The notes under the pieces were generated by a model that saw only the letters and a list, made by a program, of their open reading frames with translations, was not told the DNA's origin and made no database searches. From the IMG/VR virus record IMGVR_UViG_3300042527_000210, positions 1 to 32,969 of that record: a DNA stretch of 32,969 bases. One strand, written 5' to 3'. How positions within the stretch are numbered: the stretch's first letter is position 1; every line of letters begins with the position of its first letter. The stretch is from a virus (lineage: Duplodnaviria; Caudoviricetes). Made by a program: the position numbers and the translations under genes. Shown here one piece after another: positions 384 through 22,893 of the stretch.

Positions 384-2362
384 TGGATAATATTATCATA
401 TTGAACTTTGCAGAGGCAAAGCAGCCTGAGTATAGAGAAAAGAAAGGGCAAGGGTATATCGAATTTGGCGAAAAGAACGATTACCCTAATTACCTTTTGG
501 ATTTATACAATAAAAGTGCGAAGCACAATGCTATTGTACGCGGTAAGGTAAACTACATTACTGGCAATGGTTGGGCATCTAAAGAAGATGATGCTACGGC
601 TGAAACCTTTATTAACAGACCTAATCCGTATGAGAATCTAAACGATTTAACTCGTAAGGTATCTATTGATATTGAGGTTTTCGGTGGTGCGTACTTAGAG
701 ATTATCTGGTCACAAATTGGCGGTAAGATTGCAAGTATTTCTCATATAGATTATACCAAACTGCGTTCTACAAAAGACAATACGCAATTTTTCTATAAAA
801 GTAATTGGCAAGATAGAAAAGAGGAAATCGAAGTAATTCCTGCTTACAATACAGGGAATAAAGTAGGCAAGCAGATTCTTTATGTTAAGGAATATCGCCC
901 CGGATTAGATACATATGCTTTGCCTTCTTACATTGGTGCGTTGAATTATATTGAAAGTGATGTAGAGGTTTCTCGCCACGTTTTAGGTAATGCACAAACA
1001 GGGTTTTCTGCAAGTAAACTTATTACCCTTCCAAATGGCGAGCCTTCGCCCGATGAGAAAAGAAATATCGAAAGAAGATTTACCGATAGGTTTTCGGGTA
1101 GTGATGGAAAGAAGTTTATACTTTCTTTTGTTAGTGATATAGCTAAAAAGCCAGCCGTTGAGGATTTAGGTGCTTCAGATTTGACTAAAGAAGATTTCAA
1201 TCAAGTGGATGGTATGATTCAGCAAAACATTTTTGCGGGTCATCAGATTACCACTCCTTCTTTGTTTGGTATTTTGGTTGAAGGTTCTTTGGGTACTCGT
1301 AGTGAGATTCGTGATGGCTACGAAGTGTTCAAGAATACATATGTAAACGACAAGCAACAATTCTTAGAAAGTTTGTTTAACAAGTTAGCTAAGATTAATG
1401 GTGTTAGTTCGGATTTGTATATCAAGCCTGTTGAACCAATAGGATTCGAGTTTAGCGAGGCGGTGATTGCTGCTAACGCACCGAAAGAGTGGATTCTTGA
1501 AAAGATTGGCATTGACCCTACGCAATATACAAATGTTACTACACCAGAGCCTACGCAAGCAATGGTAAACGAGCATCTGAAAGGTATGAAGGGTAGGGAA
1601 TGGCAGAACTTTCAAAGGATTATTCGCGAGTTTAATAAAGGAAAAATCACAAGAGAGCAAGCTATATCAATGTTAAAGCAAGGGTATGGATTGGATGATG
1701 ATGCCGTTAATACTTGGCTTGGCGATGATTCTTATGAGCAACGATTCGATGATATAGATAGTACGTTGAATGTGTTTGCTCAATTTGGCGAAGATTCCGA
1801 TAGCTATAAGGTAGTGTCGCGTAGAAAGGTGTTTGTAGGCGATTTAGAGGCGCAAGAATTGGCTTTTAGAGATGAAGTGGTGGATGATACCTTAGATAAG
1901 AAAATCCTTGATACAATCGCTAAAAACAAACGTATTCCACCAGCCGATATTGCCAAGGCTTTAGAGGTTGAAGAAGCCGATGTTTTGAATAGAATAAATA
2001 AATTGGTTGCGCTTGATATTTTGAGTTACGATGCGGAAACAAAGGTCAGCAAGTTATTGAAGCCTTTGAATAAAGTTATTGATGAGCCTGTAAAGACAAC
2101 CTTTTTAGTTCGGTATGAATATTCGTGGGATTATTTGAGAACCGATGCTGAAGATAGAAACATTAAGACATCACGACCTTTTTGCCAAAAGCTAATGGGT
2201 ATGAATAAGGTTTATACTCGTGGCGAGATTGAGCAAATCTCTGCAAGATTAGGGTATGATGTTTTTGCTCGTGCTGGCGGTTGGTGGACAATCCCCGATA
2301 CTGGAATACACTCCCCTAAATGCAGGCACACTTGGAACGCAGTAGTAGTTATTAAAAAATAA
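380..2362 (+). CDS. Portal protein with C-terminal extension (HTH-like segment and MuF/minor-head-like Cys/His domain)
   Basis: First ~350 aa resemble portals (FGEKNDYP, DIEVFGGAYLEI, IFAGHQITTPSLFGI). C-terminus has RPFC...GG...CRHTW. Followed by head-tail joining genes. Confidence 0.85.
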   Translation: MMDNIIILNFAEAKQPEYREKKGQGYIEFGEKNDYPNYLLDLYNKSAKHNAIVRGKVNYITGNGWASKEDDATAETFINRPNPYENLNDLTRKVSIDIEVFGGAYLEIIWSQIGGKIASISHIDYTKLRSTKDNTQFFYKSNWQDRKEEIEVIPAYNTGNKVGKQILYVKEYRPGLDTYALPSYIGALNYIESDVEVSRHVLGNAQTGFSASKLITLPNGEPSPDEKRNIERRFTDRFSGSDGKKFILSFVSDIAKKPAVEDLGASDLTKEDFNQVDGMIQQNIFAGHQITTPSLFGILVEGSLGTRSEIRDGYEVFKNTYVNDKQQFLESLFNKLAKINGVSSDLYIKPVEPIGFEFSEAVIAANAPKEWILEKIGIDPTQYTNVTTPEPTQAMVNEHLKGMKGREWQNFQRIIREFNKGKITREQAISMLKQGYGLDDDAVNTWLGDDSYEQRFDDIDSTLNVFAQFGEDSDSYKVVSRRKVFVGDLEAQELAFRDEVVDDTLDKKILDTIAKNKRIPPADIAKALEVEEADVLNRINKLVALDILSYDAETKVSKLLKPLNKVIDEPVKTTFLVRYEYSWDYLRTDAEDRNIKTSRPFCQKLMGMNKVYTRGEIEQISARLGYDVFARAGGWWTIPDTGIHSPKCRHTWNAVVVIKK

Positions 2363-13812: not shown

Positions 13813-13878
13813 AACTCGGTACAGGGTTCGAACCTGTGCGTTTTCAAAGAAAGGTGCTACCAATTACACCAACCGAGT
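13813..13878 (-). tRNA. tRNA-like element with shortened anticodon arm (possibly derived from tRNA-Gln TTG)
   Basis: Minus strand: ACTCGGT TG GTGT AATTGGTA GCAC C TTTCTTTGAAAACGC ACAGG TTCGAAC CCTGT ACCGAGT T. Perfect 7-bp acceptor, D arm and T arm; only 15 nt where 21-22 are expected; no encoded CCA. Confidence 0.75.
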
Positions 13879-20909: not shown

Positions 20910-21272
20910 ATGGCAAACGAACAAAACTTAAAACCTTTTAAGAAAGGGGAGGTGGCTAATCCAAATGGCAGACCTAAGAAGTATGTAACCCTACTTAGAG
21001 AGCAAGGCTACAAGCTATCCGAGATTAACGATACTATCCAAGTAATGCTTCAAATGGGTGTAGATGAATTAAAAGAGGTTTGGGATAATCCTAAAGCAAC
21101 TATCTTGGAAAAGACAATCGCAAATGCGATGCGTAAGAGTTTAGAGAAAGGGTCTTTATATTCAGTAGAGACCTTGCTTACAAGGGTGTATGGCAAGCCA
21201 AAAGAAAGCCAGCAAATTCAAACCGATAGCCGGATTGAGGTAGTGTTTGTAAATGGTAAAACTATATTATGA
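20910..21272 (+). CDS. terS: Terminase small subunit (putative)
   Basis: NLKPFKKG...NPNGRPK motif and RVYGKP; upstream of TerL. Confidence 0.7.
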   Translation: MANEQNLKPFKKGEVANPNGRPKKYVTLLREQGYKLSEINDTIQVMLQMGVDELKEVWDNPKATILEKTIANAMRKSLEKGSLYSVETLLTRVYGKPKESQQIQTDSRIEVVFVNGKTIL

Positions 21273-21274
21273 TG

Positions 21275-21348
21275 CTTGTTCGGAGTGGTACTCGCCTCTG
21301 CTGACCTTGACCAGCGAACAAAGGATAGCCGTAATCCTAAAAAGAGGC
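21275..21348 (+). ncRNA. HDV-ribozyme-like nested double-pseudoknot RNA (variant)
   Basis: P1 TTGTTCG/CGAACAA, J1/2 hairpin GAGT/ACTC, P2 GCCTCT/AGAGGC, P3 CTG/CAG, 8-nt L3 ACCTTGAC whose CC can pair with GG 21323-4, CTAA before the P2 3-prime strand. Lacks the usual G+1 and L3 U. Confidence 0.5.
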
Positions 21349-21364
21349 AAACCAATTTTTATAT

Positions 21365-21392
21365 GGTACATAGATTGATTAACTGCTATTTA
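21365..21392 (+). promoter_or_regulatory. Putative late promoter (GGTACA-N15-CTATTTA)
   Basis: Same bipartite motif as before structural genes, but 305 nt before the terL start. Confidence 0.6.
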
Positions 21393-21397
21393 TGTGC

Positions 21398-21690
21398 ATA
21401 GGTTTTTCCCAAGGTGTTACCCTATTTTCTTACAAGGAGAAAAGAATAATAACCTTTCAGTTCATTCAATACGGCAGCAAAAGTGAGAGCAATGTTTTCC
21501 CCCTAACAACTCTTGACGTACAAGTTCCAAAAAAAGCTGTGACAACCTGCGAACGGATGCAGAGGAAAGGATGGGTTCTGAGTGATAGAGATGCCTTGAG
21601 CAAAATAAAACACATCTCTATACTTCGATATAAGTTTGGTAAAATCAAATTACCCTACTTGTACGGATATAGAGGGGGTGTATCTAAAGC
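21398..21690 (+). ncRNA. Candidate structured RNA / long terL leader
   Basis: Multiple local hairpins and nested long-range helices (CGTACAAGT/ACTTGTACG; CCCCCT/AGGGGG) in the largest gene-free gap of the genome. Confidence 0.45.
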
Positions 21691-21697
21691 ATAAGAA

Positions 21698-22849
21698 ATG
21701 AGAATAGAATTGCCTCAACCACATAGCAACCAACAAGCAATCCTTGATAGTTCAGCAAGGTTTAGAGTTGTTATGGCAGGGCGAAGGTTTGGCAAGAGTG
21801 AACTCTCACAAATAGAAATAATAGTCAATGCCTTACAAGGCAAGCAAGTATTCTACGTTACACCTACCTATAATTTGGCAAGGGTATTCTTTGACCAATT
21901 AAGCAAAGCCGTACCTTTTGAGGCTAATAAGTCGGAACTATCTATTAAGTTCCCGAATGGCGGAGCGGTTTATTTCTTTACAGGAGAACGATTAGACAAC
22001 CTACGAGGTCGCAAATTTCACTTCGGGGTTATTGATGAAGCCTCATTTATTCCTGATTTAGAAAACGGATGGTTAAATTCAATCCGACCTACCTTAACCG
22101 ATTACAAAGGGCGAGCCTTGTTTATCTCAACCCCTAAGGGCAAGAACTTCTTTTACTCCCTATTCCTAAAGGGTGGCGAACAAGATTGGCAATCCTTTAA
22201 GTTTACAACCTACGATAATCCCCACATAGACAAGACCGAGATTGACGATGCAAGGCTTCAGCTACCCGAAGTCGTATTCGAACAGGAATACATGGCAAAT
22301 CCTGCCGAAAATGCCTCTAATCCTTTCGGGAGTGCCTACATCAAGCAATGTACATTTGAAGCCAGCCATGAGGCTCCTATTGCGTTTGGTATCGATTTAG
22401 CGAAGTCGGTTGACTATACCGTAATCGTAGGATTAGATAGAAATGGCTCGGTATGTTATTTCGATAGATTCCAAAAGGATTGGCGGCAAACCAAGCAAGT
22501 AATCAGCAACCTACCCAAAGTGCCTACCTTGATAGATTCAACGGGTGCGGGAGACCCTATCTTCGAAGATTTACAACGTGAAGGCTTACCTGTAAGCGGG
22601 TTTAAGTTTACCTCTACCTCTAAGCAGCAACTTATGGAAGGTCTTGCCTCGGCTATCCAACAAAGAAAGATAACTTTTCCCGAAGGGCATATCACGCAAG
22701 AACTTGAGATATTCGAATATCAATATACCGCTACTGGGGTTAAGTATTCTGCACCACAAGGCTTTCACGATGACTGCGTAATGGCTTTGGCTTTGGCTTG
22801 GCATCACTACACCCGAAACACAGGGCAGGGAAAATATTCCTTCGCCTAA
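21698..22849 (+). CDS. terL: Terminase large subunit
   Basis: Walker A AGRRFGKS, Walker B GVIDEAS, ISTPKG coupling motif, nuclease GIDLA and HDDCVMALA. Confidence 0.96.
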   Translation: MRIELPQPHSNQQAILDSSARFRVVMAGRRFGKSELSQIEIIVNALQGKQVFYVTPTYNLARVFFDQLSKAVPFEANKSELSIKFPNGGAVYFFTGERLDNLRGRKFHFGVIDEASFIPDLENGWLNSIRPTLTDYKGRALFISTPKGKNFFYSLFLKGGEQDWQSFKFTTYDNPHIDKTEIDDARLQLPEVVFEQEYMANPAENASNPFGSAYIKQCTFEASHEAPIAFGIDLAKSVDYTVIVGLDRNGSVCYFDRFQKDWRQTKQVISNLPKVPTLIDSTGAGDPIFEDLQREGLPVSGFKFTSTSKQQLMEGLASAIQQRKITFPEGHITQELEIFEYQYTATGVKYSAPQGFHDDCVMALALAWHHYTRNTGQGKYSFA

Positions 22850-22886: not shown

Positions 22887-22893
22887 CTATTTA
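22887..22893 (+). promoter_or_regulatory. Putative late promoter -10 element (CTATTTA, 5 nt before ATG)
   Basis: CTATTTA-AGGGT-ATG. Confidence 0.6.

Follow-up and report, generated by a model that had tools for sequence, protein, structure and literature searches.

Results

The terS-terL junction and its accessory insert

The DNA under study is a freshwater phage record of 33 kb that is 99% complete, and we refer to the whole analysed stretch of 32,969 nt as the window. Two structured RNAs, here called RNA1 and RNA2, lie between its terminase genes on the plus strand:

20910..21272, + strand: gene in the terS position (DUF5681, 120 aa), with its stop 3 nt before RNA1
21275..21348, + strand: RNA1, a 74-nt pseudoknot
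about 21398..21690, + strand: RNA2, a structured multi-pseudoknot RNA of ~300 nt
21698..22849, + strand: terminase large subunit (terL)

The preliminary description of the site had placed the structure between terS and terL, and this is borne out, the terS name being based on the position of the gene and on DUF5681. The DUF5681 gene and terL are 425 nt apart. Among 80 viral terS relatives, the terS stop overlaps the terL start in 67, two records end too soon and 11 have a gap; the 425-nt insert with RNA1 and RNA2 is present in only 4 of the 80, all of which are among the 11 with a gap. The core of RNA2 is absent from all 18 empty-site records searched by pattern and from all 16 searched by covariance model (R1), and neither RNA was found in 10 complete relatives at E <0.1. 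The RNA1-RNA2 insert is an accessory element, and because the RNA2 core is missing from empty-site relatives, RNA2 is not an essential packaging RNA. The prohead RNA of phi29 likewise combines complementary loops with a packaging context. Unlike an RNA of that kind, which would be present in all members of its group, the insert is missing in most close relatives, and other phages carry RNA2 far away from their packaging genes. As a weak hint at the phage host, Chitinophagaceae bins account for four of the five terS relatives that are closest among cell genomes.

The junction between terS and terL is a hot spot of accessory insertion. In two loci (L008 and L056) a common small ORF with its own promoter-like site is inserted there, and the 84-aa product of the L008 copy has no Pfam or PHROG match. 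Another conserved element of ~75 nt, a hairpin plus U-run, directly follows the terS stop at L022 2837-2925 and L010 2864-2945, with RNA1 behind it in L022 and no RNA1 in L010. In L112, a tRNA-Trp (1771-1842, minus strand) lies between terS and RNA1, and ~270 nt of non-coding DNA separates RNA2 from terL. In L110, RNA2 is cut off behind the G loop, and next to it the terS end appears a second time, here overlapping terL; this reflects either a deletion or an assembly artefact. Elsewhere in the window, a tRNA-like gene at 13813-13878 (minus strand; Rfam tRNA, 44 bits), which was not called by ARAGORN, has its anticodon arm collapsed to a 3-nt loop.

A conserved pseudoknot directly after the terS stop

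All sequence strings that had been listed for RNA1 were found where they had been placed, and its elements are as follows:

21276-81/21316-21, + strand: P1
21283-86/21290-93, + strand: J1/2 hairpin
21294-99/21343-48, + strand: P2
21300-03/21312-15, + strand: P3
21304..21311, + strand: L3 loop (ACCTTGAC), complementary to the H5 loop of RNA2 and containing CCTTGA, as does the G loop of RNA2
21322-26/21334-38, + strand: P4
21327..21333, + strand: L4 loop (AGCCGTA), which complements RNA2 21470-21475 and co-varies with it in the window clade, its counterparts in the remaining clades co-varying with different sites of RNA2
21339-42, + strand: A-rich joiner

The segment 21294-21348 has a better fold than any of 200 shuffles (z -3.45); folding of the whole 86-nt stretch is not unusual (z -0.89). 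Pattern and profile searches yielded a homologue set of 20 parsed loci with 15 distinct RNA1 sequences and five loop types, from which 3 of 17 RNA1 pattern matches (L260, L261, L263) had been left out as chance matches without RNA2. Since MAFFT mis-registered the RNA1 helices between clades, all counts for RNA1 were taken from script-parsed helices. Among the 15 distinct homologues, P2 is paired in 89 of 90 cells and its pair types differ across clades at 5 of 6 positions; the inner five pairs of P1 are paired in 15/15, with two-sided changes at two of them, and the two outer pairs of P3 are likewise kept in 15/15. The J1/2 and P4 hairpins are confirmed in the homologues as well. Thus the covariation that the preliminary description had proposed to look for is present, as P1, P2 and P3 all keep pairing through two-sided changes, and a single pseudoknot at 21275-21348 is real. 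The two helices P1 and P3 stand much as they had been drawn, except that C21315 pairs with G21300 rather than with the variable G21282, which makes P3 4 bp long instead of 3; its outer pair is G-C in 14 homologues and A-U in one. A minus-strand reading also yields the HDV helix order, and one-sided G-U/G-C and A-U/G-U changes favour the plus strand.

RNA1 has the outer shape of an HDV-like ribozyme

RNA1 had originally been described as an HDV-like double pseudoknot, either a variant self-cleaving RNA or, as a fallback, a non-cleaving RNA of the same fold. The HDV descriptor of PMC6326823 comprises G1-Y, a CC/GG P1.1, an L3 with U and CG, and CRRA in J4/2. Theta ribozymes, according to PMC10879173, are defined by the HDV core and mostly lie by the 3' end of a tRNA, with their cleavage site within 5 nt of that end. 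RNA1 has the outer pseudoknot of P1 and P2 together with P3 and P4, and the outer order P1-P2-P3-P1'-P4-P2' both holds and covaries in the homologues, consistent with the fallback. The catalytic core is another matter. G is found at +1 in one of the 15 homologues, and the window has C-A in place of G1-Y. CC occupies L3 positions 2-3 in 5/15, all from one clade, and 7/15 have no CC anywhere in L3, so that the P1.1 half of the double pseudoknot is not conserved. The P1/P2 half is confirmed. The U-G reverse wobble fares no better, as the first base of L3 is U in 3/15 and CG stands at L3 positions 5-6 in 0/15. A catalytic C in CRRA directly before P2' occurs in none of the 15. In the window, the GG at 21323-24 pairs with the CC at 21336-37 inside the 5-bp P4, which places the C of the 'CTAA' in a stem; the GG proposed for P1.1 and the proposed catalytic C are each other's pairing partners. 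The variant self-cleaving RNA therefore fails every feature of the catalytic core that was tested in the 15 distinct homologues.

A relaxed HDV-order descriptor, which was written after the site had been seen, matches 21275-21348 alone in the window and has one match in 12 shuffled 33-kb windows, whereas the strict descriptor has no match in the window; across the 20 homologous loci, the relaxed form matches 9 and the strict form 0. The proposed Rfam comparison returned no HDV-type match in 21240-21720 at E up to 10. No tRNA adjoins RNA1 in the window, and in L112 alone does P1 start ~15 nt behind the tRNA-Trp.

A variant HDV-like ribozyme cutting immediately downstream of the terS stop would account for the helix order, the GG that follows the 7-nt P1' region in 12/15 homologues, the 8-nt L3 and the A-rich joiner, and theta ribozymes away from tRNAs do occur in phage intergenic regions (PMC10879173). 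However, given the loss of G+1, of P1.1, of both L3 signatures and of CRRA, the uptake of the GG and the C by P4, and the descriptor and Rfam results, we regard cleavage by RNA1 as extremely improbable. The comparison with HDV-like and theta ribozymes (PMC6326823, PMC10879173) is one of shared outline: RNA1 has the P1-P4 order, the crossing of P1 and P2, the 8-nt L3, the A-rich last joiner and a purine-G after the 7-nt P1' region, and resides in a phage of likely Bacteroidota host. Unlike those ribozymes, it is without a conserved G+1, P1.1, L3 U-G wobble or free catalytic C, its P3 is longer, the sequences of its L3 and L4 are free to vary and follow those of a partner RNA, and, in contrast to theta ribozymes, it does not sit at a tRNA 3' end, apart from the one homologue located ~15 nt behind one. 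As some of the outer measures recall HDV, RNA1 may descend from an HDV-like ribozyme.

RNA2 is a large structured RNA with strong covariation

The elements of RNA2 are:

21412-15/21452-55, + strand: P5, which closes hairpin H5
21431..21437, + strand: H5 loop (TACAAGG), to which both the G loop and L3 are complementary
21457-65/21571-81, + strand: helix A
21485-21514, + strand: core hairpin
21517-25/21657-65, + strand: helix D, long-range
21500-04/21673-77, + strand: helix E, long-range
21547-62, + strand: F
21585-93/21613-21, + strand: G
21594..21599, + strand: G loop (CCTTGA), RNA2's own partner for H5, also in families without RNA1
21666-72, + strand: invariant joiner GATATAG

This region aligns across 25 sequences, 7 of which are without RNA1. 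A structure of 47 pairs, which includes two long-range pseudoknot helices, was drawn from the same sequences that were used to score it. It is paired in 99.3% of 1172 cells, compared with 85.8% for shuffles and at most 48.5% for slid partners, and two-sided changes occur in 23 of the 47 pairs. Taken by itself, RNA2 has an unremarkable stability (z -1.29). The core words of RNA2 hardly vary, with 17 invariant columns in 31 core sequences. Helix D is present in 32 of 96 distinct core-pattern matches, and the 64 without it were left out. The neighbours of RNA2 include terminase, methylase, exonuclease, DnaB-like, HNH and integrase genes, some in early/replication or integrase regions, and its end does not adjoin terL in L008, L104 and L112. 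The RNA1 profile matches 73 of 286 records, many of them overlapping, and RNA2 is present in all 73; RNA2 without RNA1 occurs in 34 records. In cellular genomes, the core patterns gave 18 and 2 matches, and none of those inspected carried a full RNA2.

The RNA2 core hairpin was also seen in small RNAs of L270 (a Bacteroidaceae bin), L236 and L247. The L270 copy lies ahead of a terminator and can pair with the 5' arm of that terminator, which suggests that the core hairpin may be a stand-alone sensing module. RNA2 families without RNA1 (L089, L095, L113, L219, L229, L237, L238, L249; L193, L241, L227, L132) were seen to have a promoter-like site and a terminator-like hairpin, the loop of which complements an upstream stretch with co-variation; an upstream complement consistent across these families was not found.

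Several other readings of the RNA2 region were considered. The ORF at 21392-21694 (plus strand, 100 aa) has no Pfam or PHROG match, starts inside the predicted -10 box and differs in its C-terminal frame within the clade; 8 of 15 homologues have no open stretch >46 aa, and a long frame across RNA2 persists in the other 7/15, not as one conserved protein. This ORF was therefore not accepted as a gene. A self-splicing intron that restores the terS-terL overlap was considered, the joined form 21268-21698 being present in contigs of two runs; it was rejected, as the joined form is also the DNA state of 67/80 relatives and the insert carries a tRNA or an extra gene in other phages. When a group I core is mapped onto RNA2, the GAUAUAG word alone fits the consensus.

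The invariant junction bases, among them GGATATAG, recur across different phages and contexts, as might be expected if RNA2 were a new ribozyme or a toxic or mimic RNA that RNA1 inhibits, whether as an RNA-only toxin-antitoxin pair or as a guard of the read-through terS-terL message. An accessory insert with its own promoter, in which RNA1 is never seen without RNA2, would suit such a pair. Yet RNA2 has no match to any ribozyme family, it does occur without RNA1, and its core hairpin, found as it is in small RNAs and ahead of a terminator in L270, has the look of a regulatory module. We therefore view a catalytic or toxic RNA2 as fairly improbable.

Predicted transcript ends and predicted late promoter

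Two elements lie in the linker region between the pseudoknot and RNA2:

21356..21360, + strand: U-run after P2' (5 to 8 T among the 18 homologues listed), at which RNA1 is predicted to end
21366..21392, + strand: predicted phage late promoter GTACA-N16-TATTTA, with predicted start at A21398

The linker between the U-run and RNA2 measures 51-59 nt. G.ACA-spacer-TATWTA occurs in this linker at 18 of 20 loci, and at 16/20 the spacer is 16 nt long and of free sequence. CTATTTA is followed by ATG at +6 at 15 of 92 and 17 of 114 sites, versus 5 and 4 at all other offsets, many of these sites being orthologous. Within the window, CTATTTA with ATG at +6 was seen before late genes at 22887, 29619 and 32802 (plus strand). 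It is likely that CTATTTA is a late promoter that gives leaderless messages in this phage group, and the spacing to ATG before late genes is the basis for predicting the start of RNA2 at A21398. A sigma-70 scan made no call at the 21366-21392 promoter, and TATTTATA is not enriched in the window. Among the 16 RNA runs listed, 13 contain parts of the sequence, each at a share <0.5; contigs from four runs are shallow and give no ends, strand or level.

RNA1 loops co-vary with RNA2

One aspect of the locus that the preliminary interpretation had overlooked, although its non-cleaving HDV-like outer fold held up, is the co-variation of L3 and L4 with the 300-nt RNA downstream. The H5 loop has two complements, the G loop of RNA2 and L3 of RNA1, and these two have 3-8 letters in common at each locus. 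L3:H5 amounts to 5-8 Watson-Crick bp in every one of the 11 distinct combinations, and the true matching of the five loop types, which are few and related, is the best of 120 permutations. G:H5 amounts to 4-7 bp in 24 of 25 RNA2 rows, including 7 without RNA1; with seven types, 2/5040 permutations reach the true total for Watson-Crick pairs and 8/5040 with G-U, whereas a first, wider test that included two mis-cut rows was weak (70/40320 for Watson-Crick pairs, 8347/40320 with G-U). The exception is L004, which has kept L3:H5 and lost G:H5 (3 bp). In L004 and L100, RNA1 and H5 of the window clade are joined to the remaining RNA2 of another clade, an apparent recombinant or chimeric contig.

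The second loop behaves similarly. L4 has at least 6 Watson-Crick bp to RNA2 in 20/20 loci, and 3/720 permutations reach the true matching; in 6 of the 12 loci tested, the L4:RNA2 complement, which extends up to 8-10 bp, is reached by 0-4 of 300 shuffles. The site varies by clade: it is a helix B strand in the window clade, where it co-varies, the predicted 5' end in three clades and a helix D strand in the fifth. The complement begins at +6 in L011, L105 and L232, and at +7 in L112. In the window itself, the matches are short: L3:H5 is 5 bp, which 11/89 control windows reach, and L4:RNA2 is 6 bp, which 69/300 shuffles reach. Since neither is better than chance on its own, the case rests on the family, which demonstrates, by comparison of homologues, two conserved RNA structures with co-varying complementarity.

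The energies of the loop duplexes are similar for L3:H5 and G:H5 or favour L3:H5, and the five L3 sequences often match H5 better than G does. These matches bear upon whether RNA1 might merely be a stabilising 3'-end structure of the terS message, with the likeness of L3 to the G loop due to copying or chance. A pseudoknot and a U-run directly after the stop would suit that role, as would the different hairpin-plus-U-run element at the same place in L010 and L022. However, it would leave unexplained why five different L3 sequences each match their own H5, as well as the 8-10-bp L4 complements, and we judge it quite improbable.

Discussion

The current study indicates that 21275-21348 is a real feature and not an HDV ribozyme, and a strong comparative case can be made that it is one half of a two-RNA module. 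As to function, we hold it to be marginally probable that RNA1 is a two-loop antisense decoy, not a self-cleaving ribozyme, which switches the fold of RNA2, with the state of RNA2 governing expression into terL. RNA1 would form the 3' end of the upstream late transcript, which would either end at the U-run or read through, and RNA2 would start from its own late promoter at A21398. Left alone, RNA2 would close the H5-G kissing loop. L3, as a copy of the G loop, would take H5 and thereby displace the H5-G kiss, and L4 would grip a second site in RNA2, presumably the helix B strand in this phage, and elsewhere, depending on the clade, the 5' end or the helix D strand. Such two-point binding, in cis or in trans, would hold RNA2 in another state. 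Presumably, the most likely output is that of a leader switch, in which RNA2 would decide if, or at what time, expression proceeds into terL, with RNA1 setting the state of RNA2.

This decoy mode can be likened to the phage C4/CI RNAs because the CI RNA of P4 pairs with upstream and downstream sites (PMC4825925) and c4 RNA pairs through complements that sit in loops (PMC12197685). Like the c4 RNAs of P1/P7 and the CI RNA of P4, RNA1 is a small structured RNA with two single-stranded complements, presented in loops and co-varying with targets in the same region; an H5-type loop is complemented both up- and downstream, and the sequences differ between phages while the pairing is kept. Unlike them, RNA1 has a different fold and is located in the late packaging region between terS and terL instead of an immunity region, its target is a 300-nt multi-pseudoknot RNA instead of a ribosome-binding site or simple leader, and neither RNA1 nor RNA2 matches the Rfam c4 family. 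By this analogy, the RNA1-RNA2 pair would work like the CI and c4 RNAs, while being a member of neither group.

A different comparison is offered by ROOL and GOLLD, which resemble RNA2 in being phage-borne, with many helices and pseudoknots and co-varying kissing loops, and in which such kisses are intermolecular (bioRxiv 10.1101/2024.12.08.627333). RNA1 and RNA2 could thus be subunits of an RNA-only assembly, a chain, ring or cage built on intermolecular H5-G kisses that RNA1 caps or seeds, with no role in gene control. The predicted promoter, the size and the many long-range helices of RNA2, the position between terminase genes and the one homologue behind a tRNA (L112) are all compatible with this. 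On the other hand, RNA2 has ~300 nt, gives no match to the Rfam ROOL and GOLLD models, is in most cases not a neighbour of tRNAs and comes with a dedicated small RNA as its partner. Furthermore, its absence from empty-site relatives argues against an essential packaging RNA, it also occurs beside replication, methylase and integrase genes, and the binding of L4 to helix strands would unfold RNA2 rather than extend it. An assembly is consequently unlikely in our estimation. In a bolder version, RNA2 would found a new class of phage RNAs of 300 nt, either ribozymes or assembly RNAs, and RNA1 would be an ex-HDV ribozyme without its active site, reused as a programmable two-loop inhibitor; the two would make up an RNA-only pair of enzyme and inhibitor lodged between the terminase genes. 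This version we consider rather unlikely.

The element was not found described in the literature. Searches of Rfam 15 with the window at E up to 5, with 21240-21720 at E up to 10 and with the 20 homologous loci at E up to 2 gave no relevant match; nor did GenBank phages yield a blastn match to the insert at E 1. Pieces of it may nonetheless be among the candidates of PMC10690425 or the motifs of PMC5737381. The former reports 8495 short candidate RNAs from IMG/VR, some of them upstream of large terminases; six motifs were absent from the portion of its supplement that was searched, and pieces of RNA1 or RNA2 may lie elsewhere in it.

The locus thus adds two structured phage RNA families without an Rfam match, along with a three-way loop code (L3, H5 and G) for which nature has provided five compensatory sets. 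The +6 late-promoter motif is a by-product of the analysis for this uncultured phage group. It also appears that matches to an HDV-order descriptor with relaxed cores can be real RNAs and yet not ribozymes. If the proposed decoy mechanism is true, an HDV-shaped scaffold would here serve recognition instead of cleavage, and loop-based antisense control would reach beyond immunity regions, acting on a large folded RNA of the packaging region.
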